A stretch of DNA of 25,681 bases from IMG/VR virus record IMGVR_UViG_3300012952_000120, positions 1 to 25,681 of that record, one strand, 5' to 3'. Under the pieces are notes generated by a model that saw nothing but the letters and a program-made list of their open reading frames with translations, had not been told where the DNA came from and did not search any database. Shown here in pieces: positions 2,998-24,970 of this stretch (positions are counted from its first letter, which is position 1; every line of letters starts with the position of its first letter). The translations under genes and the position numbers were made by a program. This DNA is from a virus (taxonomy: Duplodnaviria; Caudoviricetes).

Positions 2998-3434
2998 TTA
3001 ATACCTAGTTCTTTTTCAGTGACTACTTTAAATTCCCATTGACGATCTTTACAGAATTCTGTTGCTGCTTGCCACTTTGCTTGGTTCTTTGCATATTCAT
3101 ATGCTTCACGCATATATCCTCTAGTTTGTCCTTTTTTTGTCCTTTTAGGAGGAGAACATTGTTTTAGTGGTTTTACTTCAATAACATAGTTTTTAATGAT
3201 ACCATTAGTTTCTTTTACTTTCATATAGAAGTCTGGAAAATACCTATGCACCTTATTATCTACAGGAGATCTATATGGTAGTGCTATTTCTTCACTTGCC
3301 CATTCTAATACATTTTTGTTTTGATCACAGTAAACCATAAACTTTCTTTCCCACAAAGACCTGAAAATTATACCTGTAGGATCACCTTTATACTTTTTAG
3401 GGTGTGATGGTCGATATTTTCCTTTATAAGCCAT
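2994..3434 (-). CDS. gp4: Head completion protein gp4 (TnsA-like PD-(D/E)xK nuclease fold)
   Basis: MAYKGKYRP.HPKKYKGDP..IIFRSLWERKFM, WASEE, HRYFPDF, IEVKP, NQAKW.AA..FC. Confidence 0.93.
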   Translation of the reverse strand: MAYKGKYRPSHPKKYKGDPTGIIFRSLWERKFMVYCDQNKNVLEWASEEIALPYRSPVDNKVHRYFPDFYMKVKETNGIIKNYVIEVKPLKQCSPPKRTKKGQTRGYMREAYEYAKNQAKWQAATEFCKDRQWEFKVVTEKELGIK

Positions 3435-3441
3435 CTAAATA
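3434..3441 (+). promoter_or_regulatory. Late promoter variant TCTAAATA for the rightward tail operon
   Basis: TAAATA core in the 33-bp divergent gap, 26 nt before GTG 3468. Confidence 0.65.
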
Positions 3442-3459
3442 GAAATGATATAGTAGAAC

Positions 3460-3467
3460 TATTTAGA
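3460..3467 (-). promoter_or_regulatory. Late promoter variant TCTAAATA for the leftward gp4-gp2 operon
   Basis: + strand TATTTAGA, the exact inverted copy of 3434-3441, 25 nt before the gp4 ATG. Confidence 0.65.
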
Positions 3468-4322
3468 GTGACACGCCCAATACCAAAGAAAATATCTCAG
3501 ATTTTGCCTACGTTTCAGAATGTAGCACAATCGTCTCATTACGTTGTTGAATTTGGTCTTCCTAATTATTCATCATCGGGACCTAATTTAACTAAGTTTT
3601 TAAAATCAAAAGGAGTTGATGATAGGTTTGATTTACGTGAAATAGGATTATTATGTAGTAAGGCAGTTTTGCCTGGAAGTGCTTTTGCAACAATTGATGC
3701 TGTAGGAGAGTATCAAGGTATAGCTGAACGAATGCCACATACTAAGAAGTTTGTTCAAATGCAATTAGAATTTTATGTTGATAATGAATATAAGTCATTA
3801 AAGTTTTTAGAGCATTGGATGGAATATATCAGTAATGGATCTGGTGGAAGTAATTTAGAAGATGCTTATCATTACAGGATGAATTATCCAAAGTCATATA
3901 AATCTCATAGTACAAAGATTGTTAAGTTTGAAAGAAACTATAGACAAACACTTGAGTATGGTTTTCGTGGATTGTATCCAATTGAATTAAACTCCACAGT
4001 TGTTCAGTATCAAAACTCTCAAGTATTAAAAGCAACTGCATCATTCAATTATGATCGCTATGTTTGCGGTAAAACTTCAACTGCTTCTGTTGCTGCTGGT
4101 TCTGATAGAAATAAGTCTGCTGCAGAGAAAGCATTTATGGGTGGTGGTGGCAGTGGTGGAGAAGGAAAAAATCTTTTAAATCCACCAGCAAAAGTTGGAG
4201 CAGGAAATAGAGATTTAATACCTCCAAGATCTCAAGAAGAAATAGATTATGCAGCTCAACTTGGAGATAAATTATTTGGCAATACTTCTGGTTCAGATAC
4301 TGGTTGGTTTGACGCTGGATAA
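3468..4322 (+). CDS. Tail tube-family protein (gp19/gp54-like baseplate tail tube initiator)
   Basis: LLCSKAVLPGS.F, LEFYVD..Y..LKFLEHWMEYI, F.GLYPIELNS...Y..SQVLK.TASFNYDRY; GTG start; low-complexity C-terminal tail. Confidence 0.75.
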   Translation: MTRPIPKKISQILPTFQNVAQSSHYVVEFGLPNYSSSGPNLTKFLKSKGVDDRFDLREIGLLCSKAVLPGSAFATIDAVGEYQGIAERMPHTKKFVQMQLEFYVDNEYKSLKFLEHWMEYISNGSGGSNLEDAYHYRMNYPKSYKSHSTKIVKFERNYRQTLEYGFRGLYPIELNSTVVQYQNSQVLKATASFNYDRYVCGKTSTASVAAGSDRNKSAAEKAFMGGGGSGGEGKNLLNPPAKVGAGNRDLIPPRSQEEIDYAAQLGDKLFGNTSGSDTGWFDAG

Positions 4323-4324
4323 AA

Positions 4325-4345
4325 TCTAAATAACCCCTATAAATA
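4325..4345 (+). promoter_or_regulatory. Tandem late promoters TCTAAATA (4325-4332) and TATAAATA (4338-4345)
   Basis: Exact T4 late consensus plus a variant in the intergenic gap before gp26. Confidence 0.8.
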
Positions 4346-4367
4346 AAATTACTGAATTGAGCATATT

Positions 4368-5087
4368 ATGCCTTTACCACAAATATCGACTCCTTCTTAT
4401 GAGTTAGTTGTTCCTTCCACAAAAAAGAAAATTAAATTCAGACCTTTTTTAGTTAAAGAAGAAAAGATTCTTATTTTAGCTATGGAGAGTCAGGACAATA
4501 AACAAATTGCAAATGCAGTTAAAGATGTTATTTCTCATTGTATCCTTACTAAAGGAGTAAAAGTTGAAAATCTTGCTACATTTGACATTGAGTATCTCTT
4601 TCTCAACATTCGTGGTAAATCTGTTGGAGAAGAAGTTGAAGTAACTATTACTTGTCCAGATGATGGCGAGACTACAATTCCTGCTGTTATCAATCTAGAT
4701 GAAATACAAGTTATTACTGATAAAGATCATAAACAAGACATCAAATTGGATGATCAATATACATTAAGAATGAAGTATCCTTCTATGGAGGAGTTTATAA
4801 AAACTAACTTTGCTGTTAGTGGTGAATTAAAAGTTGATGATACTTTTAAATTAATTGCTTCATGTGTTGATCAAGTTTTTTCTGAAGATGAATCTTGGGC
4901 AGCTTCTGATTGTACAAAGAAAGAATTATCACAGTTTATTGATTCTCTTAATTCAAAGCAATTTAAAGATGTGGAGAGATTCTTTGAAACTATGCCTAAA
5001 CTTTCTCATACAATTAAGGTAACTAATCCTAAGACAGAAGTAGAGAGTGAAGTTGTTATGGAGGGATTGCAAAGTTTTTTCGGATAA
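4368..5087 (+). CDS. gp26: Baseplate hub subunit / assembly chaperone gp26-like (T4 gp26/gp51 family)
   Basis: MPLP.I.TP.YEL, FRPFLVKEEKIL..AMES, FDIEYLFLNIRGKSVGE, FFETMPKL, C-terminal EGLQSFF. Confidence 0.9.
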   Translation: MPLPQISTPSYELVVPSTKKKIKFRPFLVKEEKILILAMESQDNKQIANAVKDVISHCILTKGVKVENLATFDIEYLFLNIRGKSVGEEVEVTITCPDDGETTIPAVINLDEIQVITDKDHKQDIKLDDQYTLRMKYPSMEEFIKTNFAVSGELKVDDTFKLIASCVDQVFSEDESWAASDCTKKELSQFIDSLNSKQFKDVERFFETMPKLSHTIKVTNPKTEVESEVVMEGLQSFFG

Positions 5088-5117
5088 GTATGGCACATGA
5101 AGATCTTGCGTCATACT
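5060..5117 (+). promoter_or_regulatory. Putative -1 programmed ribosomal frameshift signal (SD-like GGAGG, slippery T_TTT_TTC, 3' hairpin)
   Basis: GGAGG 5060-5064; T TTT TTC 5075-5081 in gp26 codon phase; stem AGTATGGC 5087-5094 / GTCATACT 5110-5117. The -1 frame reads CGG ATA AGT ATG into the gp51-like ORF. Confidence 0.65.
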
Positions 5118-5272
5118 ATAAAATTAATTTTGCCTTAATGCAACATCATAAATATAGCTTAACAGAGCTAGAAAATATGATACCTTGGGAAAGAGAAATC
5201 TATCTTACTCTTTTACAACAGTATATTGAAGATGAAAATCTAAAAGCACAACAAGAATCAGGACTTAGTTAA
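5090..5272 (+). CDS. gp51: gp51-like baseplate hub assembly catalyst (60 aa); possibly expressed mainly as a frameshift extension of gp26
   Basis: YYKINFALMQHHKYSLTELENMIPWEREIYLTLL motif. Confidence 0.85.
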   Translation: MAHEDLASYYKINFALMQHHKYSLTELENMIPWEREIYLTLLQQYIEDENLKAQQESGLS

Positions 5273-6831
5273 TGGCTCCAGCATCTCCACTTGCAGGTGG
5301 AATACAAGCAGTAAGAAGAAATGTTTCTGCCTCAACCTTTACAGGTAAAGCAGCACCTGCTGCTGCTCCTCAACCAGATAGTATAACCACTAATTTACTT
5401 GCTAGAAATAATTTAGCATTAAGTGGTGTAGCACAACAAATAGCTACAGTATCTAATCAAGTAGCATTTTTAAATAAAGGATTATCTTCACTTAATAATG
5501 GATTAACTGTAAGTGCAACTATAGAAAGACAAAAGGCACAAGAAGAAGCAAAGAGACAACAAAAATTAGCACAAATAAAACTAAGAGAAGGAAAGGAGAG
5601 TGCGTTAGAGAATAAGATACAAAATGCTTTAATGAAACCAGTCAATAGGATAGGTTCAAAAGTACAGTTTGGTTTACAGAGGTTAGCTAACTTCTTTACT
5701 ATTATTTTAGGTGGTTGGATAGCGTCTGGTACTGTTGAACTCTTCCAAGCATTAGCTACTGGTAATACTGAGAAACTTAATGAAATAAAGAGTCAAATAT
5801 TAGGGAATCTTGCCTTCTTAGGAGGTAGTATATTTTTAATAGGTGGTGGATTAACTCTATTAGCAGCTAATGTTGCTAAATTAGGATTTAGATTTTTAAA
5901 ATGGGGTGGTGGTAAATTATTTGGAAAACCTATACAATGGCTTAGTACAATGATAGCTAAGCAGATTGGTGGTTTAATACCAGGAGTAGTAGGTGGTGTT
6001 CCAAGAGGTATGGGTAGTATGACTGCTCCTGTCGCAGATAGGGTCAGTAGAAGCGGTATGAATCAGACCAATAAAGGTCAGATGAAGACTCCTACACCTA
6101 AAACTGGAGGATTCTTTTCTAGACTTCCTTTAATTGGTGGTGCTTTCCAAGTTACCAGTGATGTAACTCAAGGAAAGGATGTTCAAGATTCTGTGACAGA
6201 CACTGGTGCTGCTATGGTAGGATCTACTATTACAACTTCAGTAATAGATAAATTACCTCTAGGAAAGAAATGGAAGTTCTTAGCTCAAGCTGCTGGTGGT
6301 ATCCTTTCTTGGATAGGTTCTTATGGTTTATCTGAAACATTATTTGAAGATGCTAGAAAGCGGAGAGAATTAGAAAATCCAAATCAAGATGTTGATCCAG
6401 AAAATTATGATCCAAATTTTGATTTAGATGCATTCCTTGGTAGTGAAGGTAAAAAGGGTGATATTATGCCTTCAATGATGAGTGATGTTGGATCTTTAGA
6501 AAAGCCCAATCGTGCAAATTTTGATGCTGGTTTTAAAGGTAGTCAAGAATTTAAAAGTGCTTTGAAAGAATGGAAAATGCAAAGTGCAGAAAGTATTAGT
6601 CCAAAGTCTAATCAAAAAACTGTTGCTAATAACATTGCTAATAGTGCAGGTGTAGATGAACAACCCTTATTTGTTCCTACACCATTACAAAGTAATAATC
6701 AACAACCTGCTGGTTCTGCTTCTTCTGCTAGTCCTGGTAGGGGTGATGGTGGTGTTCCAAATATACCATCTTCTAATTCTGCATTTCGTAGTTATCAATT
6801 GCTTTCTAAAAAGCATTATCAGGTAGTGTAG
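5272..6831 (+). CDS. Tape-measure-like (gp29-position) tail protein 1
   Basis: N-terminal coiled coil, then long amphipathic/hydrophobic Gly-rich helices (FFTIILGGWIA; LAFLGGSIFLIGGGLTLL). Lies between the hub chaperones and the gp27-like gene. Confidence 0.55.
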   Translation: MAPASPLAGGIQAVRRNVSASTFTGKAAPAAAPQPDSITTNLLARNNLALSGVAQQIATVSNQVAFLNKGLSSLNNGLTVSATIERQKAQEEAKRQQKLAQIKLREGKESALENKIQNALMKPVNRIGSKVQFGLQRLANFFTIILGGWIASGTVELFQALATGNTEKLNEIKSQILGNLAFLGGSIFLIGGGLTLLAANVAKLGFRFLKWGGGKLFGKPIQWLSTMIAKQIGGLIPGVVGGVPRGMGSMTAPVADRVSRSGMNQTNKGQMKTPTPKTGGFFSRLPLIGGAFQVTSDVTQGKDVQDSVTDTGAAMVGSTITTSVIDKLPLGKKWKFLAQAAGGILSWIGSYGLSETLFEDARKRRELENPNQDVDPENYDPNFDLDAFLGSEGKKGDIMPSMMSDVGSLEKPNRANFDAGFKGSQEFKSALKEWKMQSAESISPKSNQKTVANNIANSAGVDEQPLFVPTPLQSNNQQPAGSASSASPGRGDGGVPNIPSSNSAFRSYQLLSKKHYQVV

Positions 6832-6832
6832 T

Positions 6833-8488
6833 ATGGCAAATAATACTCAGATAGTTAGAAAGTCTTTACTTAAATCTTCTATTAGTCTTCAGACTATAAA
6901 CAAGTCTGTTACTTTTTTATCTAAAGATTTAAAAAGAGCTACTAATCTTTTACAAAATACTGGTAAGGTACAGGAGCAAGATAATAAATTTAAAAGAGCA
7001 TTACTTGGTCGTGAAAATACTTGGTTTAATAGGAGAAGAGAGCAAGTATTAAGAAGAGAGAAGGAAGATATTACTGAAGCAGCTACAGTAGGTGGTGCTA
7101 TAAAGAGAAGAGGTAAGGTTGTTGGATCTAGTACTAAAGGATTTTTAGGTAGAATATTAGATGTATTTGGTATATTATTCATAGGATGGTTAACTACTAA
7201 TCTTCCTCCTATTTTGAGAGCTGTTAATAATATGATTAAATTGATACAGAAGACTGTATCTATATTGAGTGGTTTTATAAACAATACTGTTGGATTTTTT
7301 AATAGTCTTGGTGCAGGTTTAGATAATGTTCTAGGTAATCTAACAGTAGGTTTTAGATTTGATAAAGATACTGAATCTATAAAGAAAGGTTTTGATGATA
7401 TGAATAAAGGAACTAGAATGTTTTCTGCTGATATTGAGAGTAGTATTGGTAGTTATCTAGATCCTAAAACTTATGGTCGTGATAATTGGGATTTACCAAC
7501 GGATGAGACTGAAATAAACAAACCTGAAGGAACTGCAAGAAACTTTGGTGGGTTAGTAGATTTTGCGACTTTTGGAATGACTGATCTTGATAAAAGAGGA
7601 AATCTATTTGGTGGACGACACGGTAGAACTGGATTTAGTAATGTTGATGGTATAAGTAATGATGAACAGATAGAGCAGGAGCAACAAAAAACAGATACAG
7701 TTAAAGTAGAACCAAAGGATACTTTAGTTAAAGGTGCTAATGAGGATAAAAAAGATAGAGAAATTGATAATGATTCTGCCATAGCAAATAATCCAGATGC
7801 AAATTTAGAAACGAGATTTGAGAATGGTTTTATACCACCAAAACGTATTAATGGAGTCGATAATCCACAGTATATTGAGTATAAAGAGTGGTTAAATGGT
7901 CCAGGTGGACTTGATATGTTTAAATATGGTGGTTTTATAAGTGGAAAACCTCATTCACAAGGTGGAGAAAACATTAATGTTGAGGGTGGAGAAGCTGTTA
8001 TACCTAAGAAGAGAGTAGAGCAATATGGACCTGAGTATATTAATGCGATTATTCAAGGTAATGCTGACAATGTTACTAAATTGAGAGCAGGAAGATCTGC
8101 TTTAGATAAAGCAGTTGAGGATTTTAAAGAAGCAAATGATGGTATTATAAAATATGATGAGTATAAAAGAATAGAAGCAGAAACCTATGGTAGAGTAAAA
8201 GCACATCTCAATTCTAAAACTCAAGGGACAACTTCAGATCAAGTAGCACCTAAACAACAATCAGAACCTAAAATTGAGATTCCAAAATCTAAAGTTAATC
8301 AAATGTCATCTGGACCTATGAAGAGAAAAAGGAAGGTAGTGCAAATACCAATTCCTAATAATAATCAACAGCAACAGGTTCCTATGTCTCCTCCATCTGG
8401 AAGAAAGATGAACTCAGGTAAACCAAGACCTAATTCAGGTGGTTTACATATAGGAGATCTTCAATCATTAATGCTAGCTTACACTTAA
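6833..8488 (+). CDS. Tape-measure-like tail protein 2
   Basis: Charged coiled coil, GFLGRILDVFGILFIGWL segment and FKYGGFISG..HSQGG..INVEGGEAVIP motif of the kind seen in tape-measure C-terminal regions. Confidence 0.55.
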   Translation: MANNTQIVRKSLLKSSISLQTINKSVTFLSKDLKRATNLLQNTGKVQEQDNKFKRALLGRENTWFNRRREQVLRREKEDITEAATVGGAIKRRGKVVGSSTKGFLGRILDVFGILFIGWLTTNLPPILRAVNNMIKLIQKTVSILSGFINNTVGFFNSLGAGLDNVLGNLTVGFRFDKDTESIKKGFDDMNKGTRMFSADIESSIGSYLDPKTYGRDNWDLPTDETEINKPEGTARNFGGLVDFATFGMTDLDKRGNLFGGRHGRTGFSNVDGISNDEQIEQEQQKTDTVKVEPKDTLVKGANEDKKDREIDNDSAIANNPDANLETRFENGFIPPKRINGVDNPQYIEYKEWLNGPGGLDMFKYGGFISGKPHSQGGENINVEGGEAVIPKKRVEQYGPEYINAIIQGNADNVTKLRAGRSALDKAVEDFKEANDGIIKYDEYKRIEAETYGRVKAHLNSKTQGTTSDQVAPKQQSEPKIEIPKSKVNQMSSGPMKRKRKVVQIPIPNNNQQQQVPMSPPSGRKMNSGKPRPNSGGLHIGDLQSLMLAYT

Positions 8489-16801: not shown

Positions 16802-19145
16802 GAAATATATAAGTGGTAGAGTTCAAAGAACTCCTCAAGATCAATTAAGAGATGATAGATATAAGTATCTTAATGTAGAACAGTCAGAACCTAATTTAGG
16901 TGATCCTGTTGAAAATACCTATCATGATGTTAGTGATGCGTCATACAATCCAACATCTGGTGATTTAACATTAACAATTGGTACACATACATTAGAAGTA
17001 CACGAATCTATTGGAATTGTAGGTGCTGCACTTACATTTAAGTGTAATTATAATGGAGATAATTTTACAACAGAGAAAGCATATCCTAGAGAGATAGGTG
17101 CTAATACGGCTGATAGTGCTGATTATGCATATAATAAACAACTTCCAATTACTGGTATAACAGGAACTACTATTACAGTAAATGTTAATGGTGGACAAGG
17201 TGCTATAAGTGATCTTTCAACTCATCAATGGTTTGGACAGACTGCATATAATGCAATATATTCAGGAAAATATAATACACCACCACCAGTTGGTGATCAA
17301 TATCAAGTAATATCAATACCTGGACATCCTGGAGAAAGATTTTGGGTTCCTATTGGTGGAGGTAAAGTTCCTGGTGCATTAAGCATTTATGATGAAGGTG
17401 TTCTTGTAGGAACTGCTAATAATATTACTCAATTAGATTTTGTTGGTGCTCCATTAACTGCAACTGCACTTCCAAATAATGATAAAGCAACTATTAGAGT
17501 TGTTCCTACAACAATTGCAACTACTCCACCTTCAAATCCATATCATGGTGAATTGTGGTGGGAGGATGATACTGGAGATTTGATGATCTGGTATCAGGAT
17601 GGTAGTAGTGGACAATGGGTTATTGCAAACTCTGGTGGTGGTAATACTAATCCAGGTGCTAAAGGAGAAAAGGGTGAAGTAGGTGCTAAAGGTACTCAAG
17701 GATTAACTGGACCTGATGGTAAAGAAGGTCCAAAAGGTGAACCTTCTACTGAGAAAGGACCTAAAGGCGAACAAGGAAAGGATGGTATTTTAGGTAAAGA
17801 TGGTGCTAAAGGTGAAGTTGGTGATAAGGGAGAGCCTGGTGCTAAAGGTGATGAGGGTGATAAAGGTCAGAAAGGAGAAAATAAAGGTGAACCAGGAAAT
17901 AAAGGTGAGGCAGGTGATAAAGGAGATAAGGGTGAACAAGGAGTAGGACAAAAAGGTGAACCATCTACAGAGAAAGGTGAAAAGGGTGAAGTCGGTGATA
18001 AAGGTGAGGTAGGTGTAGGTACTAAAGGTGATCCAGGAACAGCTGCAAATAAAGGAGATAAGGGTGATAAAGGTGATGAAGGTGCTAAAGGAGAAGGTGG
18101 TAAAGGTGAACCAGGAGTAGGGCAAAAAGGTGAACCAGGAACTGCTGCTAACAAAGGGGATAAAGGTGAGGCAGGTGATAAAGGTAGTGATGGTGATGGT
18201 GGAACTAAAGGTGAACCAGGAGCTGGACAAAAAGGTGAACCAGGAACTGCTGCTAATAAAGGTGATAAAGGTGATGATGGGCAAAAAGGTCAAAAGGGTG
18301 AAGGTGATAAGGGTGATCAAGGAGTAGGGCAAAAAGGTGAACCAGGAACTGCTGCTAACAAGGGTGAAAAGGGTGAACCAGGACAAGAAGGTGATAAAGG
18401 TGAGGTAGGTGTAGGTACTAAAGGTGAACCAGGCTCTAATGCAAATCAAAAGGGTGAGCCAGGAGATAAAGGTGCAGCAGGTGATTCTACAAAAGGTGAA
18501 CCAGGAACTGGTCAAAAAGGTGAACCAGGATCAGGTCAGAAAGGACAAAAAGGTGAAGAAGGTGAAGACGGTACTGGTATAAAAGGTGAGCCAGGTGCTG
18601 CTCAAAAGGGACAAAAAGGTGATGGTGATAAAGGTCAGAAAGGTGAGTTAGGAAATACTAGTAAGGGTCAAAAAGGTGAAGAAGGAGATGGTCAGAAAGG
18701 ACAAAAGGGTGCTGCTGGTGAAGATGCTACTGGTGGTGCTGGAACATTAACTTGTTTTGGATATTTCACAGGTGGTAGTGGTGGTAGTGTTGGAACTCTT
18801 CAAAGATCTTATAATATAAGTAGTATTAGTGGACAAATGAATAGTAATGATGGATATAATGATCATTACGATGGTGGTTTGACTGTCCAACTAAGTAGTA
18901 GTGCTGGTGCATCTAATTGGCCTGTTGTTGCTTCTGGATTTATGAATGCCAATGTTGATACTACAGGTAGTGATGATGGTGATGTTTATCCTCAAGTAGG
19001 TGAATTATGGACATTACACGCTTATAGTATAAGTGCTACTAGTTTTAAATTTAAAGCTAGAATGCAAACAAAGTGGGGTGATGATGGTGGTGGATATCAT
19101 AATGATTTCCCAACTCTTGTAAGTTTTATAGGGTATGATAGCTAA
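16794..19145 (+). CDS. Collagen-like tail fibre protein 1 (783 aa)
   Basis: N-terminal YNPTSG module, PPSNP..GELWWEDDTG motif, interrupted Gly-X-Y run (~17655-18726) and a non-repetitive C-terminal tip domain. Confidence 0.8.
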   Translation: MSKKYISGRVQRTPQDQLRDDRYKYLNVEQSEPNLGDPVENTYHDVSDASYNPTSGDLTLTIGTHTLEVHESIGIVGAALTFKCNYNGDNFTTEKAYPREIGANTADSADYAYNKQLPITGITGTTITVNVNGGQGAISDLSTHQWFGQTAYNAIYSGKYNTPPPVGDQYQVISIPGHPGERFWVPIGGGKVPGALSIYDEGVLVGTANNITQLDFVGAPLTATALPNNDKATIRVVPTTIATTPPSNPYHGELWWEDDTGDLMIWYQDGSSGQWVIANSGGGNTNPGAKGEKGEVGAKGTQGLTGPDGKEGPKGEPSTEKGPKGEQGKDGILGKDGAKGEVGDKGEPGAKGDEGDKGQKGENKGEPGNKGEAGDKGDKGEQGVGQKGEPSTEKGEKGEVGDKGEVGVGTKGDPGTAANKGDKGDKGDEGAKGEGGKGEPGVGQKGEPGTAANKGDKGEAGDKGSDGDGGTKGEPGAGQKGEPGTAANKGDKGDDGQKGQKGEGDKGDQGVGQKGEPGTAANKGEKGEPGQEGDKGEVGVGTKGEPGSNANQKGEPGDKGAAGDSTKGEPGTGQKGEPGSGQKGQKGEEGEDGTGIKGEPGAAQKGQKGDGDKGQKGELGNTSKGQKGEEGDGQKGQKGAAGEDATGGAGTLTCFGYFTGGSGGSVGTLQRSYNISSISGQMNSNDGYNDHYDGGLTVQLSSSAGASNWPVVASGFMNANVDTTGSDDGDVYPQVGELWTLHAYSISATSFKFKARMQTKWGDDGGGYHNDFPTLVSFIGYDS
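17655..18726 (+). repeat. Gly-X-Y coding repeat region, including a 42-bp exact direct repeat (18113-18154 / 18320-18361)
   Basis: Recurrent AAAGGTGAACCAGG / GGTGATAAA units; repeated peptide GQKGEPGTAANKG. Confidence 0.9.
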
Positions 19146-19732
19146 TGACTAAACAAGTTATTATTTGCGAAAATTATGATTATATGAAGGTAGTTGTTGA
19201 TCTTCATAATGATCCTACTGGTGCAACGACATGTATTGCTACACATTGTCCTTTACCTTTATGGATTACTCCTGATCCTAATTGCGGATTAACTACAGCT
19301 CAAATTGCTGAAAAGGATGTACCTAGTGGATATAAGTATGAGATAGTAGATATTGATAAGTATGAGGACTATTGGAGGGTTGGAATAGGAAGTACTGCAT
19401 TTTTATTAACTGATGCAATTACCTCATATGATTTTGATACTAAACAATGTACATATGATGTTGCTTTTGCAAAGAAAATAGCACATCGCAAAAGACGTAA
19501 CAGAAGATATAGTGAGTTTGCTCCACACGATGATACTGTAGCAAAAGCAATTCCAGGTACAGCAGATGCAGCAGAAGCATCCCGTGCTTCAATAAGAACA
19601 AAATATGCTACGATGCAAACTGAGATAGATGCTTGCTCGACAGTTGATCAGATATATGCTATACTACAAAAATATCCAAGTCTTCCAAAACCAAAGGAAG
19701 CAAAACCTAGTGGTTATACAACACAATATTAA
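19145..19732 (+). CDS. Putative tail fibre assembly/accessory protein
   Basis: CGLT..QIAEKDVPSGYKYEIVD and AKKIAH..RR..R..EFAPHD...AEASRASIR.KYA.MQTEIDA helical C-terminus; TAATG-coupled to fibre 1. Confidence 0.55.
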   Translation: MTKQVIICENYDYMKVVVDLHNDPTGATTCIATHCPLPLWITPDPNCGLTTAQIAEKDVPSGYKYEIVDIDKYEDYWRVGIGSTAFLLTDAITSYDFDTKQCTYDVAFAKKIAHRKRRNRRYSEFAPHDDTVAKAIPGTADAAEASRASIRTKYATMQTEIDACSTVDQIYAILQKYPSLPKPKEAKPSGYTTQY

Positions 19733-20331
19733 TGAATTTTGAAACAATTGATTTTGGTGAGGGTAGATCAGTTACCGTAATAGATGGTGCTGTGAATTTG
19801 AGTATTCTAAGTAATCTTTATTACTTGTGTACTCAATTACCTTATAGAATTGGTAATTCTAGTTGTAGAGAAATTCAAGGTATAGTTGATAAAAGATTGA
19901 AATGTGATTTAGAACCTAATCATCCAATTGTAGAACTTCTTCTATACGAAGGTTCGCCATCAGAACAGGCAATAAAAAAATATGTTACTAGTGATAAGTA
20001 TTGTTTTGTTAGAGCATATGCGAACTTAGGAATACATTCTGATGTAAATGAAATACATATAGACCATCAAACTGATTCTAAAACTATTTTATATTATCCT
20101 AATAAGAGTTGGAAAACTCATTGGGGTGGACAAACTATGTTTTTAGATGATGATGCAAGTTGTAAAAAATTAGTTGAGATTATTCCTGGTAGAATAGTAA
20201 TATTTGATGGTAGAATACCACATACAGTAATGCCTTTAAATATAAGATCTACTCCATCATATAGATTTACTGTTGCACTTAAATTTGAACTTATAAAAGA
20301 ACATACCAAAGATGTTAAAACTGATAAATGA
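19732..20331 (+). CDS. 2OG-Fe(II) dioxygenase (prolyl-4-hydroxylase-like / 2OG-FeII_Oxy_3 type)
   Basis: HID facial-triad start, TILYYPN..W...WGGQT.F, PGRIVIFDG.IPH, and distal R (YRFTVA.K). Confidence 0.88.
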   Translation: MNFETIDFGEGRSVTVIDGAVNLSILSNLYYLCTQLPYRIGNSSCREIQGIVDKRLKCDLEPNHPIVELLLYEGSPSEQAIKKYVTSDKYCFVRAYANLGIHSDVNEIHIDHQTDSKTILYYPNKSWKTHWGGQTMFLDDDASCKKLVEIIPGRIVIFDGRIPHTVMPLNIRSTPSYRFTVALKFELIKEHTKDVKTDK

Positions 20332-24634: not shown

Positions 24635-24970
24635 ATGAAACTTGAACAAGGAAACTTCTGTCCTTTAATTGGTAAGGACTGTATACAATTACAATGTGCT
24701 TGGTTTACTCAAGTTCGTGGAGTGAATCCTAATACAGGAGAAGAAGTTGATGATTGGAGTTGTGCAGTTACTTGGTTGCCGTCTTTAATGATTGAAAATT
24801 CACAACAACAGAGACAAACTGGTGCTGCTATTGAATCATTTAGAAATGAAACTGTGAAATCGACTATGAAAGCACAAGAAATATATCAAAGAGAGTTAGA
24901 ATTACAAGCACAAGAAAGATTGATGAAATCTAACCAAATTAAAAATGTAACGGAGATCGAAAATGACTAA
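24635..24970 (+). CDS. Cys-rich hypothetical phage protein downstream of the fibre tip
   Basis: CPLIGKDCIQLQCAWF...G.NPNTG..VDDW.CA..WLP...IENSQQQRQTGAAIESFRNE. Confidence 0.7.
   Translation: MKLEQGNFCPLIGKDCIQLQCAWFTQVRGVNPNTGEEVDDWSCAVTWLPSLMIENSQQQRQTGAAIESFRNETVKSTMKAQEIYQRELELQAQERLMKSNQIKNVTEIEND

Follow-up and report, generated by a model that had tools for sequence, protein, structure and literature searches.

The locus considered here raises the question whether a gp26-like gene and the small reading frame directly behind it are two genes, or a single gene with an end read by the ribosome only after a shift into the -1 frame. The window, that is, the whole stretch of DNA analysed, is a whole viral contig of 25,681 bases (about 10% complete) with T4-like baseplate and tail genes. 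The gene order around gp26 is identical in the window and in Prochlorococcus phage P-SSM2, which also provides the closest cultured matches of both genes after gp26 and its tail. The public runs containing matching sequence were derived from marine or aquatic metagenomes. Elsewhere in the window, three ORFs (497-769, 19145-19732 and 24635-24970) had no PHROGs family, and a gene assigned to phrog_274, with the label DNA endonuclease V (19732-20331), was located among the tail fibre genes.

The gp26-like gene (4368..5087; plus strand, as are all elements of this locus unless stated otherwise) encodes 239 aa, the putative short chaperone form (TAC-N), and matches PF12322 and the baseplate hub family phrog_150 (E 1.5e-81). 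Its 3' end reads AGT TTT TTC GGA TAA (5073-5087), with the zero-frame stop TAA at 5085..5087. As claimed in the original prediction, the heptamer T_TTT_TTC is located at 5075..5081 (Phe237-Phe238) in phase with gp26, and from 5051 onwards the -1 frame runs uninterrupted as far as its stop at 5270-5272. Within this open frame lies the 60-aa ORF (5090-5272) that is annotated elsewhere as 'gp51' from ATG 5090. The -1 tail of 63 codons (TAC-C, 5081..5272) matches the hub assembly catalyst family phrog_634 (E 7e-31), and it also covers positions 226-278 of phrog_150. A slip after Phe238 would append 63 residues, giving a protein of 301 aa and about 35 kDa, compared with 27 kDa for the short form. 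The two remaining elements were likewise found as described: GGAGG at 5060..5064, 10 nt 5' of the heptamer, and a stem (5087-5094/5110-5117) starting 5 nt 3' of the heptamer and covering ATG 5090. Independent contigs from three of the four sequencing runs cross the run of six T without a gap, indicating that the run is not an assembly error. Contigs from RNA runs span both frames, although such contigs cannot reveal the expression level or rare indels.

Directly upstream of gp26 is a gene of the tail-tube family (3468..4322; phrog_45, PF23849), followed by TATAAATA at 4338..4345, 22 nt before gp26, in agreement with the T4-type late promoter consensus as quoted in a part of PMC3121705. Since TATAAATA is no commoner than chance (2 matches in the window versus 4.2 expected), its position is the one argument for a promoter. 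The second match, at 2455-2462 on the minus strand, is located just upstream of a gp48-like gene (1257-2426). A scan of 3300-5600 for sigma-70 promoters and terminators stayed below chance.

The heptamer in a single genome is not above chance (13 TTTTTTY in the window versus 29.4 expected), and thus the evidence for its use is comparative. Loci were gathered in sets of 80, 11, 16, 80 and 80 (the best 80 out of as many as about 600), together with named phage records. Both gp26 and a scored tail were present in 272 of the 281 sequences examined, the tail being searched in all three frames. Left out were two loci running off the contig edge, four loci ending at most 43 nt from the stop, Vibrio phage D493 (tail score, 1.6 bits), and T4 and Aeromonas phage 25, in which gene 26 is on the other strand. 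One more locus was dropped for an internal stop, leaving 271 for codon counts; this HTVC008M-like gp26 (L095:1201-1899), with its internal TAA, probably reflects either misassembly or a defective copy. Since the sampled loci are kin, the counts are not independent; clustering was carried out at 90% identity (162 clusters) and at 75% identity (50 clusters). In 701 of 701 phage records, gp26 gave one match per record.

Among the matches listed, the tail was in the -1 frame in all 272 scored cases, in agreement with the predicted constant offset. At the last Phe-Phe pair, T_TTT_TTY was present in all 271 loci listed, compared with only 7 of 260 at another conserved Phe-Phe, located in the interior of gp26. 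The same difference was observed after clustering at 90% (162/162 versus 3/152 at the control Phe-Phe) and at 75% (50/50 versus 0/43). The T run was never broken by TTC-TTC, the heptamer ending with TTC in 255 loci and TTT in 16, and no -1 stop intervened between slip site and tail (0/271). The codon preceding the slip site always ended with T, even though it encoded six different amino acids (Ser, Ala, Asn, Asp, Thr and Gly). Mapped onto a tree of 150 sequences, this preceding codon showed at least 44 changes and the control Phe codon 36, while the slip codon showed none. In 10 of the 271 loci, the heptamer is immediately preceded by a -1 stop, which pins the position of the slip. A hydrophobic residue at -1 codon 4 was also considered as evidence and then dropped, because the overlapping stop codon forces it and deprives it of evidential value. 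Judged from this comparison of sequences, a strongly selected -1 frameshift signal is very likely real.

GGAGG represents an internal Shine-Dalgarno-like element and a likely stimulator of the shift. The Glu codon within it was GAG in 130 of 151 cases, the corresponding figures being 1115 of 3885 for Glu codons elsewhere and 7 of 37 for those of other Glu-Gly pairs. In 83 of 136 cases, G was the last base of the Leu codon preceding that Glu. An SD-like motif was present 6-17 nt upstream of the heptamer in 136 of 162 clusters (30/152 at the control Phe-Phe), and GGAGG was at exactly 10 nt in 84 of 162. The codon bias indicates that the upstream SD-like element is under selection. E. coli ribosomes are prone to shift on UUY codons, and SD motifs 6-17 nt upstream have a stimulatory effect, according to PMC4066793. 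RNAfold also gave an alternative upstream hairpin (5054-5086), in which the GGAGG region pairs with the U run itself.

The downstream hairpin (5087..5117) is likewise a likely stimulator, in some lineages only. For 5082-5125, RNAfold gave -11.5 kcal/mol (z -3.66), and none of 200 shuffled sequences was equally stable; on the longer segment 5082-5160, z was -1.29. Over the 45 nt after the heptamer, the mean z was -2.42, with 28 of 50 below -2, while five flanking windows ranged from -0.37 to +0.49. Among 149 distinct sequences, 74% of stem cells could pair, compared with 29-49% when the stem was slid. The stem covariation proposed originally was detected in one lineage: of the 82 Ala rows among clusters carrying the core of the stem, 72 have a pair between the synonymous base 5095 and base 5109, versus 37.9 after shuffling, the pair types being T-A, A-T and G-C. 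On the tree, 13 changes were counted in the first column, 14 in the second and 16 for both jointly. The hairpin as a whole is limited by lineage, however, its core being present in 89 of 150 in-register clusters and absent from 61, and the window itself has an A-C mismatch at 5095:5109.

The comparison with T4 provides a view of the same protein pair in a different arrangement. The gp26 profile is homologous to T4 gp26 over its whole length (98.4%, E 7e-15, hhalign). Both parts of T4 gp51 were also recognised, the gp26 profile giving a weak match (32%, E 5e-4) and the -1 tail profile matching the C-terminus (E 7e-5); the homology predicted for the joined product was thus borne out. The tail profile also matched the end of Aeromonas phage 25 gp51 (96%, E 3e-9), and, as judged by eye, this protein stays in register with the predicted product where it passes the junction region. 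Vladimirov et al. (2022) are said to have given genes 26 and 51 as the T4 chaperone pair, which is consistent with the gp26 and tail profile matches obtained here. T4 gp26 is 208 aa and gp51 249 aa long; while the window has one gene and a -1 tail, T4 has two divergently oriented genes without a slippery run at the gp26 Phe-Phe. In both T4 and Aeromonas phage 25, gene 26 and an in-frame 249-aa gene 51 stand back to back, and in T4 the terminal Phe-Phe of gp26 is kept as the non-slippery G_TTC_TTT (L280:3803-3850, minus strand). As far as the aligned sequences tell, possession of an own gene for the long form coincides with loss of the T run, a natural control. A separate, in-frame, full-length gene 51 was not found in the 25.7-kb contig, an absence that is not final given that the contig is about 10% complete.

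A total of 45 longer proteins holding the tail were considered as natural fusions and rejected as likely sequencing or gene-calling indels, since nearly all were from single contigs and their junctions differed from each other (9 of 45 read). Eight of these entries (P0003, P0005, P0009, P0019, P0022, P0025, P0031 and P0032) have gp26 and tail in frame over about 280-300 aa; these are likely indel artefacts, a rare natural fusion being possible.

The predicted fold bears on the function of gp26. In a comparison of the AlphaFold model of gp26 (pLDDT 86.6) with 48,161 chains, the top three were 3FGX (Z 7.7, rmsd 4.1, 86 aligned), 2OB9 (Z 7.5, rmsd 4.0, 85 aligned) and 3KLU (Z 7.0, rmsd 4.3, 86 aligned), all over residues 1-96 (4368..4655), a predicted first tail-assembly-chaperone-like domain; the rows below gave Z 4.9 and 4.4. 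These Z values are moderate, and according to the search tool a Z below 8 may reflect just a common arrangement. The three top chains are tail assembly chaperones, as described in a section of PMC9603447, and the predicted fold is in agreement with the chaperone identity proposed at the outset. Foldseek of the same model against PDB gave nothing at E<=0.001, with 2OB9 at rank 6 and 3KLU at rank 43. In the sequence search with the gp26 profile, the sole PDB match, TRAP (17 bits), was rejected. When residues 116-213 (4713..5006) were folded alone, 3KLU ranked first (Z 5.3), followed by 5IR0 (4.8), 2OB9 (4.3, third) and 3FGX (3.6), a weak prediction that the fold may be present twice; a repeat within gp26 was not detected by sequence profile (E 0.085). 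The models hint that gp26 is a doubled chaperone fold. 5IR0, ORF19 of a Vibrio cholerae PICI-like element, appears alongside the solved chaperones in the rankings of both gp26 domains (Z 4.9 and 4.8), and by these models may itself be a chaperone-fold protein.

The genes downstream were described in the original prediction as two tape-measure-like genes, which overstates what they offer, namely leads. The 519-aa gene (5272..6831) is a candidate tape measure by Atlas features (0.82 to the T4_Tape_measure cluster and 0.78 to TMP_2, both below the bar of 0.9); it has no Pfam match, and its P-SSM2 homologues are annotated 'hypothetical'. The 551-aa gene behind it (6833..8488) has no family assigned and is a second candidate client. 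In HTVC008M and Cr30, an annotated tape measure lies two genes downstream.

These neighbours bear on an alternative, which we consider unlikely, that the frameshift is real but its products assemble or join the gp5/gp27 hub instead of serving as chaperones of the tape measure protein. T4 gp26 and gp51 are hub assembly chaperones, gp26 being possibly a part of the hub, as stated in portions of PMC3004832; in phage D493 the gp26/tail pair precedes a gp5-like gene region, and the genes downstream in the window are not proven tape measures. Against this reading stand the match of the gp26 model to the chaperone fold and the position of the annotated tape measure in HTVC008M and Cr30. The two readings overlap, since the T4 tape measure gp29 is a hub subunit. 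A chaperone role of the gp26/gp51 gene is very probable.

The reading frames could also be separate genes, the 60-aa ORF being translated from ATG 5090 by translational coupling, in which the hairpin is melted by ribosomes that terminate on gp26 and then reinitiate two bases downstream. Annotators name this ORF gp51. Contrary to the original expectation that this Met would not be conserved, ATG is kept in place in 125 of 162 clusters and in 81 of the 81 closest loci listed. The gp26 stop and this ATG are 2 nt apart, stop and start overlap in 9 of 162 clusters, and only 15 of 271 loci are without any start in -1 codons 3-14. Two separate genes, however, leave T_TTT_TTY in 271 of 271 loci unexplained, and in the T4 clade the protein is fused. 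The mean pairing with the anti-SD motif is weak, at -1.1 kcal/mol before ATG 5090 as against -2.6 kcal/mol before gp26. The ATG doubles as a stem arm and is present in 89 of 91 loci with the stem core, and thus its retention may be structural.

The cultured phages point in the same direction. We examined 23 cultured records (10 of them also among the 271 loci) from hosts including cyanobacteria, Pelagibacter, Sinorhizobium, Caulobacter and Vibrio, and found the heptamer in 19. No ATG, GTG or TTG was present in -1 codons 3-14 of five records, HTVC008M, C48C1, Melnitz-3, S-RIM2 and ACG-2014d, and such start-less tails are difficult to reconcile with a second gene. In Synechococcus phage ACG-2014d (L285:1114-1302), no gene is annotated over the tail, its first Met being about 35 codons in; in SPTD1, a tail-like -1 frame is also unannotated. 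The four records without the heptamer, three Ackermannviridae (L290, L291 and L292) and Vibrio phage D493 (L090), have a degenerate site such as G_ATT_TTC, with a -1 frame judged by eye to be tail-like. On this evidence, separate genes as the whole explanation are very improbable; the free 60-aa ORF could be a minor third product alongside the frameshift.

Least probable of all is the formation of the long form by transcriptional slippage, with an extra U inserted by RNA polymerase at the T run, because even though the run is 6-7 long (T7 or more in 16 of 271) and U7 runs may cause such slippage (PMC4066793, in part), it ends with C after six T in 255 of 271 loci while other Phe codons are 75% TTT, so that a longer run is avoided, the selection on SD-like element and hairpin points to the ribosome, and no indel appeared in RNA-run contigs, albeit contigs drop rare variants.

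With layout, conservation, codon selection and homology to T4 gp26 and gp51 as observed, and the chaperone fold as predicted, the frameshifted tail chaperone proposed originally is supported as a whole, and we consider it likely, with good confidence, that the gp26 and 'gp51' frames constitute one -1 frameshifted tail chaperone gene. Its products would be of 239 and 301 aa. For most ribosomes, translation would end at 5085 with the 239-aa chaperone complete; in a minority, a backward slip by one base on U_UUU_UUC would yield the 301-aa form, both tRNA-Phe presumably re-pairing from UUU UUC to UUU UUU. The slip rate may be raised by pairing of GGAGG with 16S rRNA and by stalling of the ribosome at the hairpin 5 nt downstream. 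The short form may coat the tape measure protein, as lambda gpG does, and the long form may bridge the tape measure protein to a tail or hub protein, as does lambda gpGT.

Two-form frameshifted tail chaperones are common in long-tailed phages, and the slip site of lambda is G_GGA_AAG. The gene in the window shares with lambda and P2 the short and extended chaperone, here as predicted products, and the location before a tape-measure candidate, and with HK97 gp13 the fold, according to the predicted model. It differs from these systems in its tail of just 63 aa, and its 239-aa gp26 is about twice the length of the solved chaperones (96-119 aa), possibly with a second copy of the fold. An SD-like element about 10 nt upstream and a downstream hairpin are in common with the cassette of E. 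coli dnaX and IS911 type; the gp26 signal, however, is a U run read by tRNA-Phe instead of A_AAA_AAG read by tRNA-Lys, its hairpin is smaller and not universal, and, unlike in dnaX, the shift extends the protein. In the 2016 review PMC5009743, in the parts relevant here, a low-level -1 shift near the 3' end is described as giving a short and a C-terminally extended chaperone (lambda gpG/gpGT, P2 E/E+E'), at a ratio of 30:1 in lambda with G binding the tape measure and T the tail protein, and T4 is given as the exception. PMC12846349 cites Vladimirov et al. (2022) for -1 signals of poly-T type located in the TAC-N genes of T4-like phages, and PMC10885494 for the presence, in some T4-like phages, of a short gene next to a long one in fused form; PMC12859696 also cites that work. 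Portions of PMC9024508 and PMC3121705 hold nothing on a gp26 frameshift, and a search of the open-access literature gave no description of the cassette in cyanophages, which Vladimirov et al. (2022) may cover.

The frameshifted chaperone of T4-like phages has apparently been in print since 2022, and the window adds a strong new example rather than any new principle. What is possibly new in detail is the set of selected SD-like and covarying hairpin elements and the doubled chaperone fold. A wider proposal is tentative and, in our estimate, rather doubtful: gp26 may have the full dnaX-like cassette, a selected SD and a covarying hairpin, for tuning the ratio of short to long form, unlike the bare sites of classic tail chaperones; the hairpin might gate a third, free 60-aa product; gp26 might be a tandem double fold; and T4 gene 51 might be a hard-wired duplicate of an ancestral frameshifted gene.

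The gp26 frameshift overturns nothing known. The two frames were joined in none of the 23 cultured records, the tail being given as a truncated 'gp51', as a hypothetical protein or not at all, so that annotations of abundant marine myophages are likely to miss the long protein. Since P-SSM2 has the same cassette, the 2022 prediction is directly testable in culture, and the relatives of gp26 form a natural series in which U-run frameshift signals occur both with a hairpin and without one.
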